From positions 473,474-537,473 of the forward strand of contig NMRA01000298.1 of the NCBI GenBank assembly GCA_002633005.1: 64,000 nucleotides of DNA, given 5' to 3'. A model generated the notes under the pieces. It was not told the origin of the DNA. It ran no database searches and saw nothing but the letters and a program-made list of their open reading frames with translations. Positions 34,569 to 56,659 of this stretch are shown piece after piece (positions within the stretch are counted from its first letter, which is position 1; the number at the start of each line of letters is the position of its first letter). Origin of the DNA: Phoronis australis (lineage: Eukaryota > Animalia > Phoronida). Both the position numbers and the translations under genes were made by a program.

Positions 34569-35645
34569 CCTCCATGTGGATTACGTAGTAATTGGTCTTG
34601 TCATCCCATCTTAAGCGTCTCGCCAACATTCACGTTTATCACGCGTTATTATGTTCTTGTCAATAATCCAACACAGTTTGATCAAATTCCCTTCGATTTC
34701 TGTTCTGGATGGTTAGTTGTCACGAGCAATAGCGAGAAATCCTTCGTTCTGGCGATGCACTTCTAATGAGCCACGAGCTCTTATTGATTAACGTTAAGGT
34801 TAGAAAAGGTGCTCATTTCCAAGATATGTGGCACTCGCGAAAAGCGGTACCGCGTGAAAGTTTCTCGAGTAGGTATCAAAATGGCGGCCACTGATGTGAT
34901 GAGTCGGTGAGGTTGGAATATTGAATCATGGGATAAAATTCCGTTCCATAAGCATGGCAATTCATGAGTGCCTTGTTTCTACAGCACGCAGCCCATGGCT
35001 CGGCAGCGAAACAACACAGGGGGACAATACTGACATGTGGCACGTGTAAGCGAGCCAATATTTCCCTTGCTGGGCTGCATTGATGACCGATGTTGTCACA
35101 CATAGAAAAAAGAAGACAAAACAAATGAAACAACGAAGATTTCCCTCTCGTTTCTCTGCTGCTTTGCTGGAATAATATTTCGTTAGTTTCGTACAAAACG
35201 ACTTGTTTTTCTACATTCTTGGTTCCAAACTTTCAAACACAAGAAGTGTTAATCAATAGAAAATTCTATTGAGCGGCAAAACCCGTCTCATCTCTGTATA
35301 ATATTCGTCTTGTCTATTCCTAGAGCTTACAAGGTCCATGTCATACAATTGTGGGAATTTACGTAACAGTGTTTCCGAACATTACTAATAAATCATTCAC
35401 ATGTGCGTTTGTGCATGCGTCAGTGTATAGAGAATGTGAGGTATACGCGTCTGTTCGTGATCGTATGTTAAATCTTGCACAAGTCTAGATCTCGGGCAAA
35501 CATCACAGAGATTCCGTCCTAGCGAAAGTGAAAGCAATGATATGATGATACAGTTAGATTGTCTCATTAGTTTTCTCAGGTACACGGATGCACTGAAAGG
35601 CCCTTTTATGAAAGTAATCGCTTCTTTTTCAGGCATCAACAGACC

Positions 35646-37004
35646 ATGAACCGTATGTCAAGCATCCCCGGTTCCTTCGCTTTCGCTGATACGTGCGTTT
35701 CATGGGTTGACCACAGCAATAAGAAAACGGAAGGTATAGGTATCAGCATAGACTATGACGACATATTGACAGCTACTACAGATGGCGTAGGCGACAACTG
35801 TTTTCGCTTACATTTCGCCGTTCACGAGAAAAAAACCAACAAACTTCTGAAGGGCGATTCCGTGATCCACTGCGCCGACCAGGCTGCGCGTGACGGACAC
35901 GTCTCTCGCTTGAAGGAAAAATTGTCTCTAGTCACGTGCCGACCAAAGCGTCTTTTGGTGTTAATTAACCCAGACAGCGGCAAGAAAAAAGGCGAAAGTA
36001 TCTATCGCGGGAAGATAGCTCCTTTATTCGATCTTGTCGGTATAGAGCAGGATGTGGTGATCACAGAAAACGCACCGGCTGTTGACGAAAATATCGCAAG
36101 AATGGATAGGGCAACAACAGATGGCATCATAGCCGTTGGCGGGGATGGCACGTTCCTTCGGGTCGTTAATGCCGTCATGAACGCTGCGGTAACAAGACAA
36201 GGCGGTGACGCTGTTAATCCACCTGACCCTCTGCCGGAGACACACATGCGTATTGGGCTGATTCCAGTTGGATCTCAGTGTATCATCACGGAACTCATGG
36301 ACGGAATCATAGACTTGACAACTTCGGCCTTGCGTATCATTTTGGGAAAGAAAAACAAAATAGATATCGGCGCCGTACACCAGGGCGACGGATCTTTTCT
36401 CAAATACTTCGCCTTGTACTTCAGCTATGGCTGCGCTTCGGTTGATCTCCACAATCTTGGCTATAAAAGCTGGTTCAGTCGACTGCCCTTTTTGTCAAGT
36501 GTCGGTAAAACGCCTTACAAAACATTCGAAGCCACCATTAAATGGCTCGAACCGTCAGAGTCAAATCAAGAACGTCTGGCAGCGAATGAAGGAAATGAAG
36601 AAGCAGACGTTGCTGAAGTCGCGCCAATTTTGGACGAATCTAAAGATCTTGAAGGCCAATTTTCTAACATTGCCGCGTTCGTTCCGAACCTGGATTCCAT
36701 ATTTCGGCCAAATGCCCCGGCGGAAGTAGATCCAAACTGCTTAATGAGTTTGGTCGTGAACAGCGCGAGTCTGAACGGATCCAAAGCAAATCGTCGTTTT
36801 TGTCAAAAATTTTCCAACAGGGACGAGTCCGCATTTGTTTTGGAGGGCGTGCAGCGACATCTCGTGTCTCGAGTGGAGATACAAGCAAAGGAGGGAGGCG
36901 ATGTCCTCGAGATAGTTCTGGACGGCGACGCAACACCGCTTCAATCCCCGGCATCGATCGTAGCTAAAATTCACAGAGGGAAAATTAACGTTTTCTCAAA
37001 GTAA
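35646..37004 (+). CDS. CERK: Divergent ceramide kinase-like protein (partial PH + DAGK catalytic domain), single coding exon, 452 aa
   Basis: RPKRLLVLINPDSGKKKGESIYRGKIAPLF..DVVITE..DGIIAVGGDGTF..RIGLIPVGS..D..TSALRIILG..IDIGAVH matches CERK; uninterrupted ORF; acceptor-like TTTTTCAG 14 nt upstream suggests a 5'UTR intron. Confidence 0.85.
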   Translation: MNRMSSIPGSFAFADTCVSWVDHSNKKTEGIGISIDYDDILTATTDGVGDNCFRLHFAVHEKKTNKLLKGDSVIHCADQAARDGHVSRLKEKLSLVTCRPKRLLVLINPDSGKKKGESIYRGKIAPLFDLVGIEQDVVITENAPAVDENIARMDRATTDGIIAVGGDGTFLRVVNAVMNAAVTRQGGDAVNPPDPLPETHMRIGLIPVGSQCIITELMDGIIDLTTSALRIILGKKNKIDIGAVHQGDGSFLKYFALYFSYGCASVDLHNLGYKSWFSRLPFLSSVGKTPYKTFEATIKWLEPSESNQERLAANEGNEEADVAEVAPILDESKDLEGQFSNIAAFVPNLDSIFRPNAPAEVDPNCLMSLVVNSASLNGSKANRRFCQKFSNRDESAFVLEGVQRHLVSRVEIQAKEGGDVLEIVLDGDATPLQSPASIVAKIHRGKINVFSK

Positions 37005-37784: not shown

Positions 37785-38320
37785 TTTTAAGATGCATAGT
37801 CTCATTAAATTGTGAATATGCAAATGAAGTATTAATTTACAAACAGATACCATTACAATCGCGTGAAAGTCTCTTTTTGCGGGACTGTTTTTATGTAAAT
37901 TAGTACGGTAATAATCATGGTGGACGAAGACCCGATGCCGGTCAAGAGAACAAAGACGGCATGGAATTTAGTTTATTTGGAACGTGACGTCTTTCGGGCA
38001 TGGTGGAAGCTCAGATTCCGACTGCAGCTGCAAACAGCCAGCATTGTCGTTACCCTAAAGAAACAAGGCATAGTTTTAGTATTTGTTTATTTCTCTGTCT
38101 AATAGCGATTGCATAATATTTGAAATTACTAAGGTTGTTTTCTATGTTCATGCTTGTTCTTAAGTGTATCAGTTGTGTTATCTTCAAAACTACAATTTAT
38201 TTACAAATTGTTTCTTTTCCTGATTATACTTGTACACACAGTTCTCCAGGAAGTCACTAGGTGACGCTTGCTACAACTTTATATATTCACGGTTTTAATG
38301 TGATATAACATCTTTAATAT
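37785..38320. repeat. Dispersed repeat, inverted homologue of 49730-50180
   Basis: TCTCATTAAATTGTGAATATGCA..CAGTTCTCCAGGAAGTCA..GCTTGCTACAACTT match the reverse complement of segments in 49730-50180. Confidence 0.8.
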
Positions 38321-39440
38321 CTTTTAAAGCGGCTAAAAATCCACCTTCCGTCGTTGCAATTTTTGTTTACTTGAGGCAGCCAGTTCCACTCGGACATTTC
38401 TTTTATCTGCGCCGGCCCATGAGGCACAGTACCGACGATATGTCACGCGACTCATTCACAACATCCCACTCTGCCACGCATCAAGAAGAAAACGGAATGA
38501 TTACCAGCGGTCTCATGAATCGTATAACTTTGTAGCATCTGCCTCAGACGATAAATCATATGACATCATAAACTGAAAATGGTGCCGTAGTATCTGTATA
38601 ATTTGTATGACTTGTCACTCAGGCCTTATACGAAAGTAGTCCTAGTGGGGTGCATGCACATCTTTAGAATACAAGTTGCACTCAGAAATGAGCCTTGTAG
38701 GTTGAAATAAGTTACAAGAAAGACTGTGAATGAGCACGCAAATATGATTCAAATAAAGTTACATTTTGTATTTTTAAATCTCATCTAGGCACTAAGTGTA
38801 GTCCCCATCCTTGAGCTGGAAATGCAATTTATTTCTGTAACTTCCTTAGTGCGAACTCAAGATAGGTATCTGTGATTGCGTCTTCAAGTACATTGTGGTT
38901 TACGTAGGTAAATTTTCAAGTTTCATATTTGAACTTGGCAACCACTTGATTCGAGCTACAAACGATCGAGTTTGGACTTGAAAGTTTTGGCTGCAAGTGC
39001 AAATTAGGATTCAGTAGAGACTCGGCCCGTTTCAAGACACTTCATCAACGGGGATTTGCACAAGCCCCTATGTCATCAAGAGGCATGTTTATCAGGGAAT
39101 CTGATCTAAGATCATGGTGTGCTGGGTAAAAAATCCCCATCAGCGATGGCTTCCCGGCAATAAAACACAGATGAAATGATATGTCGTGGACGAAAACTGG
39201 TGATTTGGCCTGCGAGTCGTGATGCCGGACAAAATAGCACGGGGACATTTGGCAATTGACTAGATTGGTATGTAGACTAGCCTCTATTTAGAACCGCTGT
39301 CTGGAGTTGAAACACAACCATAAAGTATTCAAACACACAATCTTCATTCACACCTATCTTGAGTTGGTACTAAAGTGGATCAAATTTCAAACATAACCTC
39401 GAGTTCGAGTTTGGAGATAGACCTCAGATGTCTATGCGTT

Positions 39441-39818
39441 TTAATCTTTCTTGTAGTAGAACAATTTCTGATTGGACCCTTCGCTCAATGTGTAGTATCC
39501 ATCCGCATTGTGACTCCAGCACACGGTCTCGCCCTGTCGCTCTTTTTCACATGGCACCTCTTCCGGTCGCCTCTCGAGGGCGTCTTCCACGTCCTCACCA
39601 GAGCGCCTCTTCCAGTAATAAATGTCTTCGTAAGTTTTCACGAGGATTTCTTGGCCATTCGGTGAGATGTCGGCGGCCGTTGGTCCCCTTTTATCAGACT
39701 TGATGGGGATGGTGGCGATGGACCGAATCTTCTTCCTTGACGAACTGCCCCAGCCGTCTGTTGGCAGTTTGTACAATTTAGGCTCCCTTCCGCTGCTTAT
39801 CTTTGGAATGAGATACAC
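39441..39818 (-). CDS. Exon 5 (terminal) of secreted bacterial-like beta-propeller protein
   Basis: Acceptor TTTTAAG|GTG, phase 0; VYLIPK..PKLYKLP..PTAADISPNGQEILVKTY..YYW..ERQGETVCW..GYYTLSEG..LFYY; TAA at 39441. Confidence 0.9.
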   Translation of the reverse strand: MYLIPKISSGREPKLYKLPTDGWGSSSRKKIRSIATIPIKSDKRGPTAADISPNGQEILVKTYEDIYYWKRRSGEDVEDALERRPEEVPCEKERQGETVCWSHNADGYYTLSEGSNQKLFYYKKD

Positions 39819-40538
39819 CTTAAAACAACGCATGGTATTGTTATCGTTTACCGAGCTTCAAGTAGGATGCGTCATACATCAGCTTAAGCGTTTCAGTGGC
39901 AATAAACCCGTGCCCTCTGTTTAAAACCATCTTTTGACGTAGGCCACTTGTTCTGGCAAAGCTTACCTAACCAGATTTGTGCGGGTTGTTACTGCTTCGA
40001 ACTGGGACCGCTAAGTCCCTAGTCATGGCGGGTTACCTTCTGTTGTCAGGCCAGTGTGGAGGTCAAGCGATTGCTTGTAACCAATTTCAATTCAAACAAA
40101 GGATAAGAACACGATGGCGATGGCTTTGGAAGGGCAAATGAGCCTGTTGTGGAAAATCACTGTTTTCACACCAGAACATGGTAATTTTAGTAAGTTACTT
40201 CAAGTGACTGTACCAAGTGCTTTTAATTAGTCTTGAAATATCGGTACCAGAGAAGTATTCAGACGCTTTTGTTCATGAGGCGAATTAAATTAATGATTTT
40301 GACCGCTAGGTGGTGTATCCAAATGTCGAAGTTGTCGATTTATACACTGTAGTCCCTCGTAAAAAACTATTCGTAAAAAGTATTCGGATGATCTCGCCAA
40401 ATGACCTGAGCTGCGCTTCAAGGCAGTTATTTGTTCCGCATTCAATGACACTTCACTCTACAGTGGTAAGTTTGTTTTGTGATAATTCAGATATTGTTTT
40501 TGCACAGCAAATTTTGTGGTCAGACTGCTGAAACTCAC

Positions 40539-40684
40539 CACTCCTTCCTCGTCCACCATTACAGATTCGCTGTTGTCTTCGTCCCAGTCAAACTTGAAGT
40601 AGCTATCGACACCCAGGTCACGGCTGCGAATGGAGGGAGGCTCCTTCACTTTGTAGATGATGTTTTCAGCATCGCCAGTGTTAC
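40539..40684 (-). CDS. Exon 4 of secreted bacterial-like protein
   Basis: TGTAG|GT (phase 1) to GTG|GTGAGT (phase 0); GNTGDAENIIYKVKEP..NSESVMVD. Confidence 0.85.
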
Positions 40685-41870
40685 CTACAAGTGCAGAGGA
40701 TCCTTGATTACGGGTATCAATTTCCGGTCCAACCCGCGAAGGGCAGCACTTTGAATGATTCGTGTAATCTGGCTTCTCAAAGTAACATTCGGACATTGCG
40801 TTTGGTTGGAAAATAATATTCTCGCTTTCCGACTGTTTGTTGTTGAGAAATGTGCCGGTACATGTGCAGGTATACCATTCCTGTCATTGAGAAACGTTTT
40901 TGTGATTTGCGCCTGCTAAATGAAGATCAAACATAAAGGATAAATACATTCATAACAGGTTCTTGTGTGTTTCTAAAACCTCGTTGAAGTTCAGATGTAG
41001 TAACATAAGAAATAAAATATATTTGCCTATATACACTTACCTCTAGATTATTTACCTTGACACGACGTTTAGATCAGTAATTTATCTGGACATCTTCAGA
41101 TGTTACAGCGTCCAAGTGCCCACCATGGACTACCGTTAGTGTCCGGGCTCATTCAAGATGGCCGGACAGTTTGCTGATAGAAGCGCCGTGCGCATGTAAG
41201 GCTAAAGATTGGTGTGTAACGACCAATAGATTTTAGAAGTCACAAGTTCTTATTTTGTGATGCATTCAAAAGGCGTCAAATAGAATTATAAAACGATTCG
41301 CTTTACTTTTCGTCTCATTCCTGGACGTTATAATTGTTTCTCATCAAAACTGCGCGTGCCTTATTTTGAGTGTAAGCTGTGATTGGGAAGTTATCACGTG
41401 ACGTTCATCTTGAATGACGTGGAAAGTGTCAAAAAAAAATGAGACACTAATCAAAATAAAAACAGAGCCAAAGTGCCTGATTTTTACAGGTGGTTTGATA
41501 TTTCCAGTTTAGGTTAATAAGGGTCTAATTATGCCTGCAATTTATAGTTACTGAAGTCGAGATTGCTTTCCTTTAACGTAAAAGCACCTCAAAATGGTGA
41601 TTTCAGCACATAATGGCAATATTTTATAAAAATGTCCACATACGAGTCCTATTTGTACCGTTGTGTACATGTACATGTACATTTTGCAATAGAATGGTAG
41701 CGATTGGGAAATATTCACTTTACATTTACCTTGAGTAACCTTGCGAGCTTCACAAATACATCGAGCATCTTGACTAACATGGCATACACTTGCCCGTATT
41801 TTGACCTTTAACCTCTGGACTCCCTGACGTATATCCCGTAAAATAGTTGAGTGTCAAGAACTCGGCTCAC

Positions 41871-42015
41871 CTCCGACATCTGCGATGTAGATACAGTGCC
41901 ATTTACCGCTCTTGCCGCACGGACCGACAGCCAGATCTTCCCAATCCTTGTTCTTGGCGCCTCTGATCTCAATAGTTGCCTTCTTCTCACCGTTTTTAGC
42001 TTCAATCACGTAAAG
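41871..42015 (-). CDS. Exon 3 of secreted bacterial-like protein (frame not in the ORF track)
   Basis: CCTAG|CTT (phase 0) to G|GTGAG (phase 1); LYVIEAKNGEKKATIEIRGAKNKDWEDLAVGPCGKSGKWHCIYIADVG. Confidence 0.9.
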
Positions 42016-43458
42016 CTAGGTTAAAAAAGCCGAAATTGTAATCACGTTTGAAGATGAGCTTAAATGTCGGATGTAATCATACACGATGAACGTGCTGTAT
42101 TTTTGTAAGAATTTTACGAACCCTGCGTCTAATGCCAATTCGGAGACTAATAATTCGCGAGTTTGGGAAGTACATGTATCTCATGATTCATGAGATTTCG
42201 ACACTTTCGTGTGCTGGCAAGCAGAGTAGGAGTCGCCTAGCCAGACTATTGGAATTCCATCTTTGTTCAGATGTTTTCTGTTCATGCGCAGTGTGAACTC
42301 AAAATAGAAGGACGATGATGCACTCGAGTACAGTATGTCCAAAAAGCGGTTCAGTGGTTAATGAATATCTTATCTGCAGTAACTTCTCAATTGGTGACTA
42401 GCCCCATCAGTTGCAAGTTCCAATCTCAAGTCGAAATATCGAGTTTTCAGTCGAGCTTGTTCATCGAGTTTTCTTGTCTTGAATTTGCAGTAAAGTAGTA
42501 CATAAAACATCAAATCTAGGTTCGAGTACAGGTTTCGATTTTTTTTACACAGGGGATACTAAAGACGTGTCGGTGTACCTTTCACAGGTCCCTGAGCAGA
42601 CGGACTTTTTGTTGTCCTGGCAATTAAGCTGGTAAAGCTCTCCTAGCCCTTTCTTAATACCCGGGTTCTTTGCGTTTTGTGAAATTAATACACGCACCAT
42701 GTTGGTCTGATTCTTGTTTTATTGCTCAATTTGTGCCTTCTCAATGTGCGAGTGGCACCTACCGGCTGGTCTGTGCGCCTTTATACGCCAAAAGGAATGC
42801 TTATTTTAAGAGCATAGACTTCTTCATCTGAACTTTGCTCCACATTAGTCTTACCCTAACAGGATTTGCACGCAAGCGGACGAGAAAGCGTCCACAGTTA
42901 ATCACTGAGTATCCAGCGAATTTCTCGGCAAATCAATGGTTTGATGGCGCTGTTGCTGATTTAAGTGAGCCAGTCGATATTCGTGGGCTTGGGAGAACGT
43001 GTTGGATGAGATAATTGCGGTCGTAAATCAACACGCATGGTTAGCGTACCAGTTTCAAAGTAAAAAACGAACAGTAAGTAAGGCAAACGACCAACATGGC
43101 TGTTTTTAAACTTGAAAAGCAAATAGGAGCCGTCTTTGAATTTTTCGATGCATTATAAGAAATACTAGCTCATAGGTTTTCTTCAGCATCGCGGCTAAGC
43201 CCTGAGCATTATCTTGTTTTAATCGATTTGGACGGGTTTGTCACAGTCTAGCTTAGGTGTTGGGGTAACAAAAGCCTAAATGTTATCGTAAGAGTTGTCT
43301 CCGTAATCGCCGTAATTGCTAAGAGGGTATTGTTACCATGGAACCCAGTTATCTTCATTATTTGTCTTTCCTACCTCACGACATTTATGTATAGGGCCTT
43401 TTAACATGACCACTGTTATTTAACCCATCATCAGTGTTATCTCTATGACAACACTTAC

Positions 43459-43589
43459 CCTTGCTCTGTCGCCAGAATCATTCAGTGTGTACAAATAGCC
43501 TGGATGTCTGCGGCTTGCTGCTAGGCCTGACGCCTCTCGCACTGCACTCACTCTGCCAACAGAGTCGCCATCTCTGAAACCGTTTTTAC
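43459..43589 (-). CDS. Exon 2 of secreted bacterial-like protein
   Basis: GGCAG|GT (phase 1) to AGG|GTAAGT (phase 0); VREASGLAASRRHPGYLYTLNDSGDRAR. Confidence 0.9.
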
Positions 43590-44162
43590 CTGCCAGTGGA
43601 ACGGAGAACAAAGTCCACAACCATTCATTTTAAAACTGATAGAACCAGTAAGGTTTATCAGTTTCAGTAGACCTACATTGTAACTGTCATTATCACATAT
43701 TTTGTAAGGTGTTATTATACGATTTAGACAGATTATTAATTTATGAACTCACCACCGGATAAACGTTTGGAGTCAATAATAAGCATATATGACCAATCCC
43801 GTGGGTGATATTTTACAACTGTGGATTAGGAGGTGTTATAAGGTCATATGGACTAAGCAAGAGCATTATTGCTCAAGACCGAGGGTGCGGTGAGAAATCA
43901 TCGCTTGATTAATAGAAACAGTGTTCTGTCCCATAATTCAAGAATCTAACCTCACCGATCAATCGCTTTAGTGACCGCCATTTTGCCGGGGTATATTAGG
44001 TCCCGCGCATAGACCTACATGTATGTATGCGCAAAGAGTCTTTCAATCGCATAATCTTGTTTTTTCAGCATGTTTCGTCTACAGAAGGCACCCGACTTCT
44101 CTGTGTACAAGAGGTAAATACCTGACGAGCTATAACATATGAGCATTGTCACAGCAACTTAC

Positions 44163-44253
44163 CTCTAGCTAGTCTTTCCAATATCTCTTGGTGGGAGAGC
44201 GGGGCTGTGTGCGCAACAGCAACCAGGCAAGCTAATGCCAAGAAATAAGACAT
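44163..44253 (-). CDS. Exon 1 (signal peptide) of secreted bacterial-like protein
   Basis: MSYFLALACLVAVAHTAPLSHQEILERLAR, donor G|GTAAG phase 1; upstream acceptor at 44262 and donor at 44506 suggest a 5'UTR exon. Confidence 0.75.
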
Positions 44254-47200
44254 GGTAAGAACTGAAATAATAGATGGTGGATAAATGGGTTAAAAGGTCA
44301 TTGTATTAAATGTCGAGCGCGCTATGCTTGAAATGACACATGCAGTAAATCATGACAACAACGAATATTTCGTTTTAACTCATTGGTTAGTCCTAAATAG
44401 CAGACGATTTCCATGTATCAATTGTTACCAACTAATAATCTAAACTAAGGTTGAAACCGTGGAGAAACGCACATTTTGATCTGGAATACACATGGAGAAA
44501 TCTCACCTTGAGGCTGTTCTGTGGACTGATGTGGTCGCTAAGTGAGGTCGGACTTTCTTATTTCACAGCCGTATCTTAGTATTTCGCCAGATGGTTCGTG
44601 TCCCATGGAGTGAATAGAACGTGAATCACTTATGCAAGATTAACTAAATGCCTTCACGTGAAGGGTCCTACCCCACCTTATCTAGACATGTGGTAATTAG
44701 AAATCAGGAGGATTTATATAGTTTGGTGTATGCAACTATCTAAGTGCGGTGTACATTTTATTAGACTGCGCGGGGTTAATTTTGCAGCACCCACTACTGA
44801 TAATTCAAATTTCACCTCTAGTCACCGCGGTATTTCTCCATGGTGTTTCACTCGCGTTCGTATCTTTGGACCAGGTGTGTTCAAGCTTCCGCTACTGTCT
44901 GGTTTTACATGAAATTCATTCTTTGTTCTGTAGTGGGCTGCAGTGCAGGCGTGGCGGAGGATTCTGGTTAATTTTCAGTCTTGCCAGCTTACTCCACTAG
45001 GTCTTAGTGCTGGCATTGGAAGAATGGGTTTCATGTGAAAATGATTAGATGGTGCGTGGCGCCAAATTCTGTACGCAAGGCCGGACCGTCATAAGGACTA
45101 TGTCATAAGCTTTCTGCGGACAGACGCTCGTGATAACCTCAAATGCCGTTTCGACCGCGGTTTTCTTGCTTCAAATCCGGGCGCCTTTGATAATCAGGTT
45201 TCCATTCATCGAAATGTGCTTATTATTGAGTGCAGTATCACTGCTGTGAGTCCGGTGGACGTTTATCTTGTTATCAAGAAGGCTCGCGGGATCTCTTGGG
45301 CGCTACGACTATACCTTATGGACGTGTATATGGTGCAGCTGCAACTTCGGGATTACCAAAGGTCCCTTCGCACTACTATAGACAGCCCATTGTCTTCTTT
45401 CTCTAATTAAAAGTGTCGAAGACAATGTCACGACCTCTCGGGCGCTCGATGGGTGGCCAGTCGATTGTAAATAATGGAACATCCACGCGGGGTCCTTCCA
45501 AAAGTCTAACCCGGCCCCCCCTCCCCCTTTCTCCACTTCCCCAGTGTAGGCTCATTATGTACATGTAGGCTACGTGCACAACCGTGCCCCGATACTCGGA
45601 TATTAATTCTTCGGACAGTTGACTCGTGCATCTACAGTTGGAGACGACATTTGTTATACCTGTATTAGTAGCGTTTCCAGAAATGAACAATTAGAAATCC
45701 AAGGCATTAAGAAAAAAGAACATGACTTCAGCATGTGTCTGAAATCAACATAATACATTTCTGTCCAATGCCCGGACCACTGGTGCCCATTTTCTTAGAG
45801 AGGAACCTTACATTTTCGAAAACGTATTGGGTCTATTTCGTATATATTACTTATTTTAAAGGTTATTTCAAGACTTATCTATAAAATGATATTACAGTGG
45901 CGGATCTAGGATATCACAAGGGGGCCCCAACATTTTGTAAGCATTTGCGCAAACTGAACCACGATTGTAGATGCGCATAGCGCCGAATGTTGGGAGGTCG
46001 GGAGGGTGGGGGTTGCTGGCGGATAGAGCCAGCGTGCGTTACCACTACGCCACCATGATTTAACTACTTATCTCATACTAAGAGACCTACTTGTTTATGG
46101 TCCACAGCGTTTGTGCGCGAAACCTACTTCTTTTTGTAATGCTTATTACACGTTTTATATTTTGTGCCATCAATTCTTAACACATTTGTCGTATTTGAAA
46201 TAGTCTTCAAATGCCCAAAAGACCAAATCCGTTTTTTGTGTTAGAACTAATGACGGGATTGCTTTGGAAATCGTCTTAAGATAAGGTTTGACAAAGAGAG
46301 TATTGCGAGTTCCTGAGTGACTCACTAAGGCTTCGATTAAAATTCACATCTTACCATCAGCTTCTGTTTTTTCATCGTCACTCAGGTTCCATTTTCTTTA
46401 AAAAATGAAGTAAATTTTCTTCATTGCACAGTGGAGCAGACGACGGAAACGGAGTCGTATTGCGCAGCGCCACTGCCGGTCACCTGGGATATAGCGGGAG
46501 AGCCTATACTTAGCCATAATTCCGTTACGAATGCGCCGTGTTCCGAATTTAACACTTGAAATTGGATTTGAGCCTGGTCTGGTACTCAATTAGCTTCATT
46601 GCTTGCGTCTGGCATCATTGTTCGAGTCGAACGGTAAACTGCTACGTACCGAGGCTGGGACTGAAAATGTATAGGCGCCTCTGGCACTAAGTAGATTTAT
46701 TAGAACGGAATGGCAAGAGAACAAAGTTTATTCTAACATGCAGATCTGTTCCTAACTTACATATATTATACTCTCTTTGTCACATGAAGTTCCGCCTCAA
46801 GAACTGGTATTTTTATTAATTTCAAGACAACACTGCCCGGTTGTATGAAAAAGTCCTGAATAGGGACTCAGCAAAGTGCCCTGAGTTTTGTGTATATGTT
46901 TCGCTCTTTACTCACAGTTGCAAACTTTCCCTGTCATTTTATCTACAGTATGTTATGATCTCCTCCAAATAATACGGCTAAAAACGGAGAGTTCTTAACT
47001 TGAGGGTTTTGAACGAAAATTCCCCACTCGTTTTCAAAAACATTGAGACTTCAACGAAGAGCTTACAATGGATTTGTTTCAAAGCCCTCCACTTAGTAAG
47101 GAAACTAAAACGCCATAAGAAAGGACAATCAGTGCTTTCACATGTCCACAATTACGCAGTAGATATACAGTACTTAGTTGAGTACCAATTTTTGACTGTC

Positions 47201-47863: not shown

Positions 47864-48087
47864 CTACGAGTTCTCTTTTAGAATCAACGATAGGGTTTCA
47901 TTATCAAAGTGGTTTTGCCATCTCCTGTAGACGTAGAGTCTGAGTTTGTAGAGTCCGAAGAGGAACACGTGTGTCGCTGGTAGCAAGAGTATAAGTACAC
48001 CAGGCACAAATGCAGCCGTGGTGCCGGGGCAGTTGATAGGGTCAATTATACACTTGTAGATGTAGTTGTGGTTTAGGGCATTGGTAC
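47864..48087 (-). CDS. Terminal exon of rolling stone-like membrane protein
   Basis: CCCTAG|GT, phase 1; GTNALNHNYIY..ID..PGTT..THVFLFGLYKLRLYVY matches the rolling stone C-terminus. Confidence 0.85.
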
Positions 48088-48177
48088 CTAGGGAAAGAAG
48101 GTGATACATTATAGGTCTAAGTTTATGAACAGCATTATAAAGTGGTACGTGTACTATTACCCTGCCAGAAAACTCAA

Positions 48178-51100
48178 GAGTGACTCCATATGAAAACCAG
48201 CAGGTGGAATCCATACTCAAAATCCCAAATTCTTTTCGACTTAGCACATGAGTTTGGTTTGGTGAGATGTAGAAAATTTCAAGAATTTTCATCCATTATT
48301 TCTCTTTTTATGACATGTACTTCCATTTTGCAACACAATTGGGCTCCGAAGTAGATATGTTTGAATGCATTTTACTACCATCAGGAAGAGCTAATCAGGA
48401 AGGGACAACTAGCTAAACCGCTGTTTTTAGTCTCCTTCCCCAGACTAATTTCAGGAATTATGTTTCATTTTGAAGAAAACAGTTGATTTCATCAGAAAGA
48501 GTAAAGCTTTTTCTATAGAAGAATTTCCATAAAATTACTTTGCAACTTTAAAAAGCGGTATAATTATGCTTTGAAAATATCGACTTCATCGCATACAATC
48601 GCAACTTCCCACACGCACTCACGGGTATTTACGCTTTTCCGTCGACGTACATGTATAGATGGCGCAGTAGTCAAGTACTCCCTCATTAGCATATCAAATT
48701 TGCATGCTGTGAATGAGTTTTCGAGATTCTTGTCAGTTGTTAATCAAAATGGTGTCCTTACGTGAGTTAGTGATAGATAAAGTGACAAAAGAATCTCACT
48801 GTGACGGATTTTATCCTGCAAGGAAAGTTCTCTGAGACACGTTTGCCTCGACTCCGTTTAGTGAATTAGTAATATTTGAGGAGTTTTCCGGCCTCTTCCA
48901 TTAAATAAAGCGGAATGCTGCGGATCGAATCGCCAGGAAACCGGTGACGAAGAGCTAAGCCGGCGTACTGTTTCGCGCTGATTGGGGTCATGCTCTGCGT
49001 GATAGAAAGTTCACGAAAAATTTATTCATCCAGATGAATTCTCTGTTGCCAGAATTGGACTTGATGAGTAAATATGACCCTGACCTGCGATGCGTCAGCA
49101 GTGCAGTGTGCAATGCTGCTTTTTGTAAATGCACCGTGAGTCCTAGGCGGCTCCGCCACCGTGTAGTCCGCTGCTAGTACCAGTTCAGCCACTGCCAGCA
49201 CTGACAACACCAGTGCCGGAAGTAGACGGAATCTTTTTCCCGGCCCCAGTTCAATTAGTTGTACCTCCGAACTCACACCCCAGCCTGATTGGAGTTTACA
49301 TGTACTTTCAGGTGGTTGAATTGGAGAGATGTTTCGTACATACAAGAAGATCAGGGGTAATGCATCATACATTCAGAAAAAATGGCTGCCGTGACCGCTT
49401 CTGCAGATGTAAAACGAAGTAGGTTTTATTTTGATTTCCTGGGAATAAGAACATGGGATTGGGAGTTATAAAATTATTTATGTCCCTTGATTTGTATCAA
49501 TGGTCACATGACACTGGGTCTAATTCTTATCAATTGATGTTATTTTCAAAACTGAATTGTCGTATACTTTCCTGAGTTCACTCTAAATCTAATGACCCTC
49601 GTTGCAAAGCACGTGACTTTCTCGTCGATTGGAAGCAAAACAATGTTCATGTGATTAGCTTTTCAATACAACAGTATGCGTATCACAGGCTTCTTTTGAT
49701 TTCGGGACAAGCTGAACATAGACATATTTTAAAGATGCCATGTCTCATTAAACTTGTGAATATTTGAAGTTGTAGCAAGCACCACCTAATGACTTCCTGG
49801 AGAACTGTTTGTACAAGTTTAACCAGAAAAAAAAAACAAATTGTAAATAAATTGCGGTTTTAAAGAAAACATTACAACTGATACTGATAAGCTTAAAAAC
49901 AAATGTGAACATACAAAAAACCAATAATTTCAAATACAATGCAATCGTAATTTGACAGTGAAATAAATAAATATAAAAACTGTGCCTTGTTTCATTTGGG
50001 TAACACTGAAACATTACTATTCATTTGCATAAAAATAGTCTCGCAAAACGAGACTTTCGCGAGATTGTAATGGTAACGGGTTCTCAGATGGTTTTCAGTA
50101 TATGGTAGGACCCGGGTATGTTTGTAAATTAGTACTTCATCTGCATATTCACAATTTAATGAGACGATGCATCTTTAAAATATGTAGTTCGACTGGACTA
50201 GTGGCGGTCTTTCAACAAGGGATTTTTAAACAGCACTATTGGCCAGGGACTTCATGACCGTACCTATCAAAAAATCTTCAAAGCAAATGGCCATATTAAA
50301 ATGAACTTTTCTCGAAACTGGGTCATAATAAAACGAACTTAGACCCAGCACAGACGGGTAGGTTCGAGCTAAGCTGTCTGTCTCAAGTGAAATATAGCTG
50401 AGTTGAGCGGCGACTAGCATTAGTTCATCGAATTTCGTATTTTCACACTTTTAGATATCAGCTACAGTTACTCAGTTAGGAATCTCCCAGCTAATCGTCA
50501 GTGCGCTGGCCTTAGGCTCATGCTTACTGTCCCTAAAACATTGGTTCACGGTTTCTCAAATCCTGATAACAGCATCCATGGGATTGACNCCAGCGAACAG
50601 GAAATGGGTTGGAGTTGGGGTAAGGTCGTGGCGATAGAGAAAGGGGATGTTATTTGGCGCAGTCGAATTCATTTGTGCTCCCAATAATTGTTGCCTTCCT
50701 ACGTGCCTGCAGATGGATGAGACTTCCCGGCGACGTCGAGACTACCGTGGCTAAGGGCTAACGCTAATTTCTCGACTAATACCTGCTTCTAAATCTGGTG
50801 TTAAGGAAAGTTAAAAACAAAATGACAATGTCACACATGCAAGCGTATTCAAATACAATCAAATGTATTTTCATGTGAAACCATATTCAATGTTCTTCGA
50901 ATATTCACTAGGATCGATTTCTCAAGTGACTGCTGTTTTCTTAGAATGAGATCGGACCAATCAGGAAGAACTGCGTTTCAAGTCATACACTATTGGCATC
51001 TGACGGTTCAAATTGGAAGCTCGCGTCGTATGACGTCGTTCGACGTATGAGATGCAAGTCTTATTTGCATATATCAGCGACATCTATTGGTGTAAAAAAG

Positions 51101-51560
51101 AAGATCCTGAACGAGTGCAAAGAGGTGTCTTTTGCAAGGGTAAAACATGTCATGCTCAAAGCATCCAAGGGCCACTAATACATGTATGCAGTCTTTGGGG
51201 ACAGGAGTGGTGTTATTTTATAGGTGAAGAGCTAAGCTTTCAAACACAATGCTTGGATTTCAGACAACTTGGACATTCTCTTTTGAAATCACTTTTGAAA
51301 ACACGTTAAAATGCGCCAAAACAGTTGTCCCTTCCTGGCTATATGCTACCATGTATAGCTCGCTGATAACAAATTAGTGACACACTTTTAAATGACTATG
51401 ATTGAATAATTTAACGGCATAACTTTCAAAATTCATTTTCGTGGCAAAAGCGGCTATTTTGCAGGTTTTCACTTAAGCCATTTTCGGCCACATTTGGCAC
51501 TCTGTAGCAGCTACCGTATATTACACCTTTTCAAAAACTGACTTTATAATAATTTGTTTA
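48178..51560 (-). mobile_element. Older copy of the Sola3-like right end, split by an inserted element
   Basis: 48178-48381 matches the reverse complement of about 9985-10197, and 51346-51560 matches the reverse complement of about 9767-9990. Confidence 0.75.
48392..51341. mobile_element. TIR element (possibly non-autonomous Academ-like) nested in the Sola3-like copy
   Basis: Perfect 15-bp inverted repeat CAGGAAGGGACAACT (48396-48410) / AGTTGTCCCTTCCTG (51323-51337); the right end reads TAG on the minus strand. Confidence 0.6.
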
Positions 51561-51851
51561 GTCGTTTCTAGGGTCTTCATATTCTAAAATAAAAAATCTT
51601 GCCTCTCCCGTAGTTTTTGCTTACGAAGGTGTGCGCGGGCAAAACTAGCGTGCCTCACTCATCAGGAACTTAGAATGACATCTGCCGCATTGAGATGAGC
51701 CCTCCCATCCTCAGACATGATGGCGTTTGGAAAAGGTTTTGAAAAGAAATTTTGGTAGAGGGTCAATGCTAAAATAACATGTTTTATTAAAAGTCCAGTA
51801 AAGCGTATGTTCCCCCTCATGATTTTGGAAGACTTTAGTTATTATACCAAC

Positions 51852-52013
51852 CTCCGGTGTAGAGATAGATGATTACGGTCACACAATAGAGACAAAAAGC
51901 CGCCATCGGGTAGACTACATGGAGCACTCTAACAGGTGTCGCTGTAATCAATGTGTCAACAACAACGTACACAATCGTTATGTGCATGTGTGTTTGAACG
52001 ATACCCACGGGAT
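51852..52013 (-). CDS. Internal exon of rolling stone-like gene
   Basis: TTTCAG|AT to G|GTTGGT, phase 1-1; THMHITIVYVVVDTLITATPVRVLHVVYP..IYLYTGG. Confidence 0.85.
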
Positions 52014-53316
52014 CTGAAAGACAAGGAGAATTTTGACAGCCAGAAGCGAACCACGAAGCACACTCTTTCCAAAACACATTACAATTTTATTGTTTGGCCT
52101 ATTTAAACGACGTATGAACTATGACTAGGCGAAACAAAAGAACGTCCTACAACTGATGTCGTCAACCTTGAAAAGTAAAGGGGTAGGTTGTTTGCAAATC
52201 AGTAAACTAGAGGGTGAAATGCTTGCCTGTGGGTAAAGCCAGAACATCTGAAACCGCACATAAATCAATTTGCATCGCAACCACCTGAAGACCTACTGGG
52301 TGTACCGTAGAGCGTATAATAATTTACAAAAATGTGTTTTTGAGACTGTAACTTGGGAATTTTATTAAATAAAATTTGGTCCTAATAAGGATACCAATGC
52401 TTTGCAATCAACGTTTTTTATTCTTTTTTTTTTTTGCTGAATTTAAATAAAAAATACATGATCACATGACCCAATTAACGACAAATTGTTAAAAATCCAA
52501 AAATTAAATTCTTCAACCTTTCTTTTTTCAGAAAATTTAAATTTTTACTGAGTTAAAATCTACAGTTTTGTAGATGTTATGTTAAATCCATATATTTGTC
52601 GATAAGATCTAACATAACCTCAATCGGATTTGTTGATAATAAAACAATGGGAGAAGGGGAAATGACATTACTTCGAGATATAACGTATTAGCAAAAACGC
52701 TGTTCCTAGAAACAAACTGCAAAACGAACATGCACATAAGTAGACGGCCTCCTTCGGTGAGGATAGAAAGAACTTGTCACGACAGGAAATTGATTAAAAT
52801 CAATTAAAGGCGATGCTGTGGCTGCGTAGCTGTCAGTGTTGAATTCTTAAACAAAATGCTTCGGAGATTAAATCAATTATCGCACTTATCCTATCCTGAA
52901 TTGTTCCGAAATGAACCGGAAATCAAGCCACTGGCATTGCGTACATGCGCCATTTTTAATTCGCAATCTTATGGTTGGTCAACCCCAATAAACTCTTACG
53001 CACTTGTTGAGTCACCGATGGTTTCAATGTTCTTGTTCTTGTTCATGACGAAAACTTGGTCCATTTAATGTACTTTAAACAAAAAGATGACTTTGGTCAT
53101 TTTTTTCGTTTTTGGCAGGTAAATGTTGAGGTAGGTCAGTTTTAAACAACGCCGATGATGCAGTATTATTTTTACATTATCTTTGAAAACCAAAATGGAC
53201 ACTAATATACACATACAGACAAGATTTTGGGGGAGAAAACGAATAATCAGGTTGGACTATCGGTAGTCCAAGTTATGAATGCACATCAGTGTTAGTACAA
53301 CTGATGTTGATAATAC

Positions 53317-53439
53317 CTTTGTAGGTTGGAACCATGGCTGTCCAGTAAACCAGAGTTACAAGACAGGCGGCGTCAAAGGCTATGACTTGGAGAAACCATG
53401 CGGCCTTGTGATGCCACGTCATAGTCTCGTGTGTGAAAT
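53317..53439 (-). CDS. Internal exon of rolling stone-like gene
   Basis: CTGCAG|AT to G|GTATT, phase 1-1; MTWHHKAAWFLQVIAFDAACLVTLVYW. Confidence 0.85.
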
Positions 53440-53992
53440 CTGCAGAAAAAATCGTATTAGCTACAAATAGTAAGGCAATCGTACTTTCTGAGAATATTGT
53501 TACGATTGTAGGGCCTTTTCTGCAAATTACGTCATCAAATGTTACTTTTGCACAGGAATGGACCAACGGAATTCCTTTAGTTGGCTTTAATTGTTGAAGC
53601 AAAATCTTGATGCCGTTTTCGGAAGCAAAATTTCAACTTCGACAGAGATAAAAACTTGGCATATGTAAACACGTACATTGATGGGACACAGCCCGGACAC
53701 AGTACGACTGTAGAAAACTAGAAATACTAAGTGGTTGTATTTCGTTGTTTGAATGAGCTCCCCTGACAAACGCAAAATCAAAACACAGCATGACTCGCCA
53801 TAGCATGTCTTCCAGACATTTGCTGAAATCAAGCGCGGTGTCTTTAACATTTAAAACGCTTAAAATGTTCAGCATTAGAGTATGAGCCTACTGCTGCTAA
53901 GTTAATGGGCTCTATTCCGTGCCATTGATAAGTTTTGCAAAATTAATGTTCTATCCAACAATGTCACTTTAACAAATCTGCATTTTCTTTAC

Positions 53993-54227
53993 CCGGTTCA
54001 TTACGAGTCCTTGGGTACGTAATCATAACTGTCACCCATCGGAAGATAAACGTGGCCAAAAGCGCTGCGTAGCTCCAGTTCGTGAGATAGAGGAACAACT
54101 TTACGTGGTTTTCCGGTCCTGAAAACCAGCTCTGATTTGGAAGCGCGCAAGTCAGCACAAACCATATCGAGATGTATATCAGACAGACCGTAACGTAGGC
54201 GAGATACAGCGCTTGGGAACAGAACCA
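53993..54227 (-). CDS. First identifiable coding exon of rolling stone-like gene (FAR-17a/AIG1-related multi-pass protein)
   Basis: TTACAG|TGG (phase 0) to G|GTAAAG (phase 1); hydrophobic helices and the hallmark KLFLYLTNWSY. The ATG-bearing exon was not located. Confidence 0.85.
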
Positions 54228-56659
54228 CTGTAATGGGTTAGAAAATAATAACCACAGTAATAAATGTGACATTTTTAACATATGAACGCAGTACATGTTG
54301 ACTACTCGTCAGATATGTGTTGGTTTTCTATGATAGTTATTAGCGCAACACCGGGGCAGAAACTAAATTTACAAAAGGTGGCAAAAAATATTCCCTTATT
54401 TAGTATGACGTCATTTTGACGTTTTGGACCTAGTCAAATAAATTAAAATACCTAAATGAAAATTCCAAAAAATAAAAATAATAATTAGATCAGATTTACG
54501 TAAGCGCTTCGAATCTGGCCTTGGATCTGGTCAATTCTAATGCTTCTGAACTCCCAGGGATCATTCAGTAGGTTCTACCGTTGTCGGACCACACCGAGTA
54601 ACCTAAACACATAATTTTGTAAAACTTCCAAGTGCTAAACTGCCCCCGTGGCTAAGCTTAAGACCTGCAAGATTTTTAAAAATGTGATTTGAATGTGCAC
54701 TTATATTCCTACTTGTGGGTGCAAACCGCGTCATATTAGTGGAAGATACGTCACCACTAAACATCCGAATGGTAACAATTTGTCGACATGAAGTAAATAG
54801 CCTACCCAAAGATATGCCCAATTTGAGTTGTGTCTAAAAATTTTGAGTTTTCCCGCGTTTCCAAATGCACAGCTACTACGAAGAGGTGCACATATATACT
54901 CATTCAGCATTCCGTACATGTCAACCGTGTGAGTATGTAAATATTCACTTGTCCTACCTACTTTTTACACTCCAGGGTAGAGTTCAGAAACGCTAAAACC
55001 TAGCTAAAATCACGTGTTCTCGTTTAAAACACACGGCAATATCTCATATAATCTCGCAAAGTCTTGGCTTTTGGCGAGGTCCCAGCGTTACTGAACGGCT
55101 GGCTGGTATCATCAGGTTCCTTATTTCGTTATCCAATTTTCATTTTGAATATCGCTTCATTGTTTAACCATGTTACAACTCGTAGTTGTATTATTTTTAT
55201 TGGAGCGCACATCTGTGGCCGCCATTCTATTGATGCACGACAAGAAATTCGAAAATCACTTTTGCACGCAATCTACACGAAATTTGATCGCACTGTGTAA
55301 CTCGTTCAAAGGTCGAGACATGTTAGTCCGGGAGCCAGAGAATTTTTTCTTACTTAACCTGGATTTGCTGGATAAAGTTTAATTTTTTGATGTTTATGTA
55401 GCCTAGGGATAGGTTATCATGATTTGGGGTGTGACCGTTCGAAACCCTTAAGTATTTTTTAAATATGCAAATTAACTTCGTGATAATACAAAACTCTATT
55501 TTTGCTTATAACGTCCTTGCCAAGCACTGTAAACAGGTTATTTTAATATTTTCACCTTTGTTTCCAAATTCAGTGAATTTAAAGGAGCTCGTTTGTTAGT
55601 GAACATATCGGGAATTTGCATAATATACGCAAATTAGTTCCGCCATTATTCAAAATTCTGCTTGTAGCTGTAGTACCAGGTACGACAGGTAAATTAGTTT
55701 ATGTTCGGAATATGTCCCCAAAATAATACCAGGTACCACAGGTAAATTATTGTAATACTTGCACACATGTTGCTGTTGTGAACTAGTTTAATAAAATCAG
55801 TTTGTAAGTTGCTGCACGACAAACTTGCATAATTTATGTAATGTAATTCGAAATTCGGTTTTTGCTCCTAACTTCCTTACAGGCGTTACATGTTCGTGAT
55901 CATCATGAATTTGCATTATTGATGAGTTACATAAATTAGACTAAGTTGCCATGAAAACAAAACTCTGCTTGTGCTTATAATTGCCGTATCAGACACCAGA
56001 GGTCAGTGATATTAATATTTGCACCCACGTTTCTGTGGTCAATGAGTTAAATGAAACCTGATGCAAGTAGCATGGTAAGTTCGCAAAATCTCTTTTTGAA
56101 GATGAAGTGAGAAAATAGTTTTTGTAATATGTGCTCAACAGTTTGAGACCTTTAATTCCAAAAAAGATTTGCCTAATGTTCTACTCCCTTAAGCCATAGA
56201 AAAATGCAGATTAGATTAATGAGCTGAGTGAATGCTGGAATGGGACTCGGTGCGATCAGTTTATAGGGACCACATTCACGATGTACAGACACAGTAGTGG
56301 AGGCATAGTAGGGAATTTCCCTCAAAGAAGAGCCTCTTTAGCTTTGGGCACGAAGTTGCCATTTGTCTTGCAAGATTGAAACGGGTCTTGGAGAAACGGA
56401 AAGCGATAACATTGCATATTGTACTCAAACCTATCACAAAGAAGAAAGTAAGGCACGTTTTTAGTAAGTGCCCAAAATATTGCACGAATCCGTCAAAAAG
56501 TAGATACCAGCATCGATCCATTGGATCCCAAGTTCCATCCCAAAGGCGCAGTAGAGAACATTAGCAGTGACACGATTGCTACTCCAACAGTTAATACATG
56601 TACACGAAGCAATAAGCATTGAACAAGCACTGCTATAAAACTTCGAGAAAGGCTGACCA

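Follow-up and report, generated by a model that had tools for sequence, protein, structure and literature searches.

Introduction

The best structural match of two modelled homologues of the protein considered in this study is the five-bladed C-terminal domain of YjiK from E. coli (PDB 3qqz; PF06977), a protein that is not known to have an activity. The gene of interest lies on the minus strand of a 64,000-nucleotide stretch of Phoronis australis DNA (contig NMRA01000298.1, positions 473,474 to 537,473; this whole stretch is referred to as the window, and positions are counted from its first letter) and encodes a member of a family of putatively secreted beta-propellers with homologues in bacteria, molluscs, the brachiopod Lingula and dinoflagellates. 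An initial annotation of the window had proposed an ancient bacteria-to-animal transfer of this gene followed by its domestication with introns. The analysis reported here finds a bacterial origin probable and puts forward, more tentatively, a metal-dependent phosphoesterase as the encoded activity.

Several described systems bear on this gene. Pseudomonas CarP, a relative of YjiK, affects Ca2+ homeostasis (PMC10574481), and type I glutaminyl cyclases (QCs; PDB 3mbr and 3nok) are five-bladed propellers with structural calcium (PMC7948796). The msp130 proteins are secreted or surface-bound seven-bladed propellers with predicted Ca2+ sites, for which an ancient bacteria-to-animal transfer has been argued; they occur across bilaterians, are duplicated in marine invertebrates and retain nine introns that are conserved in at least 75% of the bilaterian copies (PMC11878542). 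For the GH13_1 amylases, whose patchy distribution in the same phyla resembles that of the propeller family, a comparable ambiguity between retention and transfer has been described (PMC7003070). In Flavobacterium johnsoniae, the transporter Fjoh_0545 and the pectin-lyase-fold lipoprotein Fjoh_0546 are encoded by some of the genes most strongly induced by phosphate starvation (PMC8115612).

The family resembles YjiK in fold, and among named ESM Atlas clusters YjiK is also the closest (0.89-0.90), but identity to YjiK is 14-16%, no sequence match to 3qqz was found, and the PF06977 profile reached 2 of 140 family members (best E 0.0083), short of its curated cut-off; the YjiK/SdiA-regulated family is a neighbouring family and not the same one. 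The beta-propeller phytases of PF02333 are six-bladed, and they and the PF13449 proteins are, like the present family, secreted acidic propellers. PF13449 is weakly matched by 7 of the 140 members (best E 7.7e-5; P0001 scores 22.4 bits against a cut-off of 27.6), and PF02333 matched none of the 140 and was not among the top 50 fold matches. Type I QCs differ in their low identity (8-13%) and in their conserved residue set, with no QC Pfam match in the 140 members (E<=0.05) and no match to QC PDB chains. The family shares with msp130 the propeller architecture, the (here predicted) secreted or surface location and an argued bacterial origin, whereas it is five-bladed, is found in animals only in lophotrochozoans among the matches listed, and has a representative in the window that shares at most one intron with mollusc-like loci.

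Results and Discussion

Gene structure and expression

The gene comprises five coding exons of 91, 131, 145, 146 and 378 nt separated by four GT-AG introns of phases 1, 0, 1 and 0, which together give a frame of 296 amino acids (aa) with a single terminal stop, reproducing the structure that the initial annotation had assembled from the letters. When pieces of these exon sizes were chained at random from the region 20,000 times, none of the chains was stop-free (0/20,000), and the ten short motifs searched for were all found in order on the minus strand (10/10). Raw stranded RNA reads were available from three runs carrying the same species label (X1, X2 and X3; approximately 18-19% of each run was sampled), and all four coding junctions were supported by reads in both X1 and X2 (Table 1). 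Run X3 contained no junction reads for the propeller gene, though junction reads of a neighbouring gene were present in it, suggesting that expression is tissue- or condition-dependent. The RNA also places a non-coding 5' exon upstream of the coding region, joined by 2 + 9 reads, so that the gene has at least six exons; this exon, the dinoflagellate copies and the alternative donor discussed below extend beyond what the initial annotation had covered.

All three coding differences checked between the gene itself and the reads or contigs were synonymous (3/3). Over positions 39636-39677, reads with three synonymous differences run into unmatched ends on either side (139 and 128 reads), which indicates an expressed paralogue elsewhere in the genome. 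Reads and one deeply covered contig at 39636-39677 and 40639-40665 come from such a paralogue, which is apparently more abundant than the propeller gene; no second family copy was found within the window. Low antisense transcription (plus strand) was also seen in introns 1-2 (42056-44070), including a spliced GT-AG joint 43073/44069 with 2 + 3 reads.

Family distribution and origin

Exon 5 alone retrieved 1,917 homologous representatives at E<=0.001. In three of the searches the listings covered 150 of 1,917, 120 of 272 and 120 of 982 matches, and the named animal members among all matches listed comprise 25 mollusc genera, including a chiton, gastropods and bivalves, as well as Lingula; no cephalopod, no other animal phylum, and no fungus or plant was among the named matches listed. 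The best full-length match of the window protein is the Lingula homologue (43% over 297 columns), while bacterial homologues in the fetched set reach 35-39% identity over approximately 260 aa at E ~1e-50. The corresponding ESM Atlas cluster has 92 members, 94% of them eukaryotic and mainly from Mollusca, and its next neighbours are bacterial. The expectation that unannotated homologues exist in "other molluscs" was correct as to their presence, and they are already in NCBI as "uncharacterized" proteins; the host itself is not marked as a mollusc, because the window protein groups beside Lingula outside the molluscs and at most one of its four introns is shared with mollusc-like loci.

The bacterial side of the family is large, with an estimated ~5,500 stored stretches in GTDB genomes, matches at E<=1e-15 in 115 of 301 sampled Bacteroidota genomes (approximately 30 of them strong) and eight bacterial phyla among 80 labelled loci. 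Neither Pfam nor NCBIfam assigned a family to the four longest exons, to exon 5 or to single-domain homologues, and no description of the family was found in open-licence literature. Longer members carry T9SS/FlgD, PKD, LTD, Ig or lectin tails and domains, a phosphoesterase (PF04185) is fused to the propeller in one Acidobacterial subfamily, and animal paralogues are fused to WSC or sushi domains, with B-lectin and PAN fusions also present in the family. In Haliotis and oysters, tandem paralogues occur together with two-domain and WSC- or sushi-fused forms, and a 7.6 kb metagenome contig of animal origin (L113) holds three tandem copies. When exon 5 was used to look for longer proteins by word index, nothing emerged from 147 candidates, and a single truncated, 28%-identical match was found among 122 pattern hits on viral contigs; because its coverage was low, the trees do not include it.

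As the initial annotation had anticipated, the label "PE-PGRS family protein" is attached to the bacterial family, being carried by one homologue (P0249, Dyadobacter). True mycobacterial PE-PGRS proteins combine a PE domain with Gly-Ala-rich repeats; no PE match was found in the exons or homologues and no such repeats in the protein, and the label is a misannotation. A "PE-PGRS family protein" is also listed among Biomphalaria expressed genes (PMC13619432); it could not be tied to the propeller family.

Two-domain copies are carried by the dinoflagellates Symbiodinium and Effrenium. The nearest ESM Atlas clusters of the dinoflagellate domain are all bacterial, and its first domain scores 188 bits to bacterial-type and 125 bits to animal proteins. 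The Symbiodiniaceae copies (P0013, P0158-P0169) sit on a very long branch and are probably a separate acquisition.

The animal sequences form one clade, comprising 104 of the 430 rows of the first tree, and recovered again in a second tree with support of 97 in the SH-like approximate likelihood ratio test (SH-aLRT), in a more careful one of 51 rows with 100/100, although its bootstrap had not fully settled, and in an outgroup-rooted tree with 97. Within this clade the window protein falls outside the mollusc group, together with Lingula and two unnamed proteins (84/87 in the careful tree, 96 in the outgroup-rooted tree). When a distant bacterial subfamily served as outgroup, the free tree nested the animals inside the bacteria and placed the dinoflagellates elsewhere; this subfamily (L204-L220) has the same propeller, is widespread in Bacteroidota, at times as tandem pairs, and was used for rooting only. 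From the first tree set 53 fragments with fewer than 200 profile positions were left out, as were four long-branch Haliotis paralogues (P0200, P0211, P0230, P0235) from the three later trees, and P0083/P0110 with 23 other bacterial-type rows from the careful tree. The FlgD/T9SS-tailed pair P0083/P0110 appeared as sister to the animals (98 and 86 SH-aLRT) and was rejected as a donor candidate because of its branch length.

The gene is an integrated, intron-containing and expressed host gene, and its protein is closer to bacterial-type homologues than to those of non-recipient eukaryotes (within the fetched set, 253 bits to the best animal, 164 to the best bacterial-type and 108 to the dinoflagellate proteins). 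Combined, these results make a bacterial origin of the animal gene probable; since the tree backbone is weak and alternatives stand unrejected, as set out below, the case for transfer rests on distribution, similarity and introns.

Introns in animal homologues

The introns of the window gene lie in G31 (phase 1), after R74 (phase 0), in G123 (phase 1) and after V171 (phase 0). For comparison, a metagenome scan yielded six animal genomic contigs among 79 loci, two of them oyster-like (L082, L083) and four near-identical in appearance (L101, L102, L113, L120) and probably from one other animal, giving approximately three independent sources overall. A phase-2 intron just before the Trp equivalent to W156 is common to the six contigs (both sides in four, the acceptor alone in two) and is lacking in the window gene. 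A phase-1 acceptor after the signal peptide occurs in L083 and L113, and further introns are private, namely a phase-1 intron at the A119 equivalent in oyster and, in L113, a phase-2 intron after blade-1 strand c and a phase-0 intron in blade 4. At most one of the four window introns is shared with the mollusc-like loci, and there the positions differ by a codon within a stretch that aligns poorly. Such limited sharing is consistent with an ancestor that had almost no introns, others being gained separately afterwards; a retroposed copy that subsequently acquired introns would leave an indistinguishable pattern.

Predicted fold and conserved residues

Models of two homologues, from Mercenaria and Lingula, have mean predicted local distance difference test (pLDDT) values of 90.6 and 93.6 and are both all-beta propellers. 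The best match of both is YjiK 3qqz, with Z 21.4, a root-mean-square deviation (rmsd) of 3.2 and 226 aligned residues for Mercenaria and Z 21.9, rmsd 3.0 and 224 aligned residues for Lingula. The type I QCs follow at Z 18.5-20.6, and all other matches are at or below 15.6; Foldseek returned generic propellers, with 3qqz having the top TM-score (0.55) among the listed rows. The strand pattern and the YjiK and QC matches of these two models predict a five-bladed propeller, in agreement with the YjiK/phytase-like bacterial propeller family named by the initial annotation.

The N-terminus of the window protein is hydrophobic (Kyte-Doolittle 2.94 over residues 4-14), which favors the signal peptide proposed earlier, and the protein is therefore predicted to be secreted; the first coding exon may also encode a short propeptide ending in an R-x-x-R site. 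Across 301 bacterial-type domains, residues E49, S51, G52, D68, D98, E100, G122 and N124 are conserved at 94-100%, and the window protein has them too; the same holds for E137, P138, E162, K177, E264, G267, E268 and E284, so that the retention of acidic residues noted in the initial annotation extends to a near-invariant set. Because these residues sit at the starts of the blade strands and in the b-c loops, most of the conserved Glu, Asp and Asn residues and two Lys are predicted to ring one face of the propeller and to hold metal ions and a phosphate group. A disulfide is probable between C107 and C115, two cysteines specific to the animal sequences.

Bacterial gene context and function

In 8 of 145 bacterial loci, a TonB-dependent transporter, a lipoprotein of approximately 450 aa and, directly after them, the family gene share a strand. 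A further locus (L118) has the family gene after the lipoprotein; the transporter-lipoprotein loci of the family fall into six groups that are less than 50% identical to each other. The lipoprotein was then used as a query in 401 Bacteroidota genomes, of which 14 were positive, giving 14 units from 13 of the 400 new genomes. In all 14 of these independent units the lipoprotein follows the same transporter, and third or fourth place is taken by a calcineurin-like phosphoesterase gene in seven and by a beta-propeller phytase gene (PF02333, L197) in one, the phytase holding the operon position of the propeller family. The L192 unit continues into a PstSCA-like transporter, the L194 unit has a propeller family member in fourth place, and upstream of the L190 and L193 units lie a pyrophosphatase and a metallophosphoesterase; in L190 and L195 no same-strand gene follows in third place. 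The third genes of L191 and L194 look phosphoesterase-like by eye and were left out of the count, having no Pfam support, and further phosphoesterase-carrying units occur in the starting genomes (L173, twice, and L175). More widely, this Bacteroidota unit of a transporter and a beta-helix-like lipoprotein was observed across L169-L203, usually with phosphoesterases following.

The transporter carries the Pfam set of Fjoh_0545 (PF07715, PF13715 and PF14905), and the arrangement resembles the Flavobacterium PUSIV loci (Fjoh_0545/Fjoh_0546; PMC8115612), with the same transporter set followed by a beta-helix-like lipoprotein and phosphoesterase neighbours. The lipoprotein itself gave no Pfam, NCBIfam or PDB match, and members of its family have weak beta-helix matches. 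Clustering of general neighbourhoods returned chiefly housekeeping synteny, and the surroundings of most bacterial loci were uninformative.

From this context the bacterial family likely acts in the scavenging of organic phosphorus, either as a hydrolase or as an accessory protein, and the role may extend to the animal copy, given 31-37% identity and 18 of 20 key positions retained. The initial annotation had suggested a metal-dependent extracellular enzyme and left its substrate unspecified; gene order in bacteria now points to the more specific class of phosphate esters. A phosphoesterase-type function, considered separately from the rest, is judged about evenly balanced. The suggested biomineral role found no support in Lottia shell proteome tables, where proteins 169531 and 169532 are absent from five supplementary files that use those identifiers (PMC4094399), and no motif match was found in 12 of 27 Haliotis shell files (PMC6003135).

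Evaluation of alternative explanations

The account preferred here is that of a secreted propeller, imported once from a bacterium, that acts as a metal-dependent phosphoesterase; taken as a whole it is tentative and somewhat short of an even chance. The gene would have been acquired before the mollusc/brachiopod split, its introns would have been gained later and largely lineage by lineage, and the protein, probably with calcium as its metal, would free phosphate from extracellular organic compounds. A fuller version is doubtful: in it, the lophotrochozoan lineage took over, early in its history, the hydrolase with which bacteria scavenge organic phosphorus, a five-bladed calcium-dependent phosphoesterase that might be a phytase or a nucleotidase, and kept it for more than 500 million years, with introns added per lineage and an expansion in molluscs.

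A number of results weigh against the preferred account. At the level of the gene, 28 of the 62 intron-3 reads (approximately 45%; 13 + 15) use an alternative donor at 41730, which lengthens exon 3 so that the frame meets a stop at codon 128; the predicted 127-aa product would come from a decay target, and this isoform is possibly regulated unproductive splicing. At the level of the protein, the consensus residues D123 (94%) and H66 (84%) are replaced by Gly and Leu in the window protein, K177, N124 or Q266 is lost in many animal paralogues, and PDB sequence searches with 17- and 140-row family profiles returned nothing significant. The transporter unit contains only 9 of the 145 bacterial family loci and the other 136 lie outside it; 79 other adjacent genes show for the most part no connection with phosphate (one PAP2, one PPK2), the likeness of the lipoprotein to that of the PUSIV loci consists of weak beta-helix matches, and the link to phosphate is one of gene order. 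In 3 of the 14 units (L196, L198, L200) the third gene is a different propeller without catalytic annotation, so that the slot does not prove catalysis. Most of the listed matches are unnamed, eukaryote sampling is incomplete, and the profile search did not list 7 of the 11 database proteins that were part of the alignment used as its query. Finally, approximately unbiased (AU) tests did not reject the animals and dinoflagellates as one clade (p 0.544 and p 0.585) or a position of the animals beyond the core bacterial family (p 0.701), and the constrained trees were better than the quick free trees by 4.7, 5.8 and 12.3 log-likelihood units. The backbone is weak, and nesting, donor and number of transfers are not established by these trees; ancient transfer, as first proposed, thus stands as the most likely origin while three AU tests leave its alternatives unrejected, and the requested comparison of bacterial and metazoan homologues yielded a single animal clade nested in bacteria in the free tree on that weak backbone.

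Those unrejected topologies, the incomplete sampling of eukaryotes and the comparable ambiguity of the GH13_1 amylases in the same phyla are also what could be said for old eukaryotic inheritance with widespread loss, or for arrival via another eukaryote, so that the animal and dinoflagellate copies would share a eukaryotic ancestor. This is unlikely: the branch forced to join the two groups had a length of 0.0 in the first AU test, which is no signal either way, each eukaryotic group is closer to bacteria than to the other, no further animal phylum, fungus or plant is among the named matches listed, the Atlas neighbours of the dinoflagellate domain are all bacterial, and few introns are shared even among the animals. 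An artefact, whether DNA of a contaminating bacterium or open frames that happen to splice together, can be practically dismissed given the RNA-supported spliceosomal introns, the homologues on chromosome-scale mollusc contigs and the intron-containing homologues on independent contigs; contamination is excluded, the flanking genes (the diacylglycerol (DAG)-kinase, TLDc and PAN open reading frames (ORFs) and the spliced gene at 48-54 kb) being of animal type.

Concerning function, an imported propeller that binds calcium or another ligand without catalysis (accessory, lectin-like or CarP-like, in mucus, immunity or ion handling) is improbable, though it deserves serious consideration. It draws on the best fold match being YjiK, on the influence of CarP on Ca2+ homeostasis, on the unannotated propellers in the same operon slot, and on the animal paralogues that erode conserved residues or are fused to WSC or sushi domains; yet eleven polar or charged residues conserved at 94-100% across bacteria of 30-40% identity, all kept in the window copy, would exceed what is usual for a binding scaffold, and T9SS, PKD, LTD and Ig tails would be typical of secreted enzymes. 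A secreted hydrolase of another class, such as a glycoside hydrolase (GH) or phosphorylase with glycans from food or microbes as substrates, in the manner of GH43, 62, 32 or 130, is distinctly unlikely. Many five-bladed glycosidases match at Z 12-14, and the WSC, B-lectin and PAN fusions, the TonB-dependent transporter context and the weak beta-helix match of the lipoprotein would suit it, but the glycosidases lie 6-8 Z units below YjiK, no GH Pfam match occurs in the 140 members, and 8 of the 14 transporter-lipoprotein units continue into phosphoesterases or a phytase, not carbohydrate-active enzymes. Very improbable is a type I (plant/bacterial) glutaminyl cyclase that forms N-terminal pyroglutamate on secreted proteins, for which the second and third best structural matches and the shared five-bladed, calcium-containing architecture speak, and whose catalytic Glu may correspond to blade-2 E100. 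The QC pocket is Trp-lined, whereas the conserved set here is acidic; the sequence identity is low, QC Pfam and PDB-chain matches are lacking, and the operon context points elsewhere.

Features of the window

The coordinates of the gene are collected in Table 1. Downstream of it, an unbroken 477-codon ORF with a DAG-kinase catalytic domain (PF00781) spans 35571-37004 on the plus strand and is expressed in all three runs; we take it to resemble a sphingosine/ceramide kinase and possibly to be a retrogene. Minus-strand reads with a joint 36963/37098 overlie this ORF. Upstream, a spliced multi-exon membrane-protein gene occupies 48085-54305 on the minus strand (joints 48085/51850, 52013/53317 and 53439/53993; two exons without a Pfam match), which we assume to be akin to "rolling stone"-like proteins. 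A TLDc-domain exon (PF07534; 11650-12312) and a short PAN-domain exon (PF00024; 6675-7055) lie on the plus strand, and no Rfam families were found within the window.

Table 1. Features of the propeller gene in the window; read counts are given as X1 + X2. UTR, untranslated region.
Feature	Position	Strand	Evidence
Non-coding 5' exon (upstream end approximate)	44507..44531	-	joint 44261/44507; 5 molecules end at 44531 in X2; GT donor
First coding exon: 8 nt UTR, ATG at 44253	44163..44261 (coding 44163-44253)	-	junction to next exon, 10 + 29 reads
Coding exon 2: blade 1 (E49, S51, G52, N67, D68)	43459..43589	-	junction, 17 + 10 reads; conservation
Coding exon 3: blade 2 (D98, E100, D101, D120; animal-specific C107, C115)	41871..42015	-	junction, 16 + 18 reads; conservation
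Exon 3 alternative extension to second GT donor	41730..41870	-	joint 40680/41726 (cut +4), 13 + 15 reads; depth 16-17
Coding exon 4 (N124, E137, P138, E162)	40539..40684	-	junction, 47 + 36 reads; conservation
Coding exon 5: blades 3-5 (K177, D221, K232, E264, Q266, E268, E284), stop TAA	39441..39818	-	
3' UTR (end approximate)	38091..39440	-	same-strand depth 47 to 26 to 6 over 38984-37656, X1
AATAAA/ATTAAA candidates in 3' UTR	38833, 38318, 38299, 38201, 38091	-	motif list

Implications

Well-supported ancient transfers into animals are few. An ancient transfer into marine invertebrates is of a known kind, and the family seems not to have been described before, nor its predicted activity or the history of its introns. 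With so few introns in common, the gene offers a model for intron gain by a transferred gene, and the operon context gives an "uncharacterized protein" a directly testable substrate class. If the proposed activity is correct, the family would constitute a new class of animal extracellular phosphatase and offer a first enzymatic handle on the YjiK/CarP propeller neighbourhood. Paralogues of the family number in the dozens in farmed molluscs (oysters, scallops, mussels and abalone); such animals would then digest organic phosphorus with a bacterial-type enzyme, which would bear on their nutrition and on the phytate in plant-based feeds, and it may likewise bear on phosphate supply in the phosphatic-shelled Lingula.

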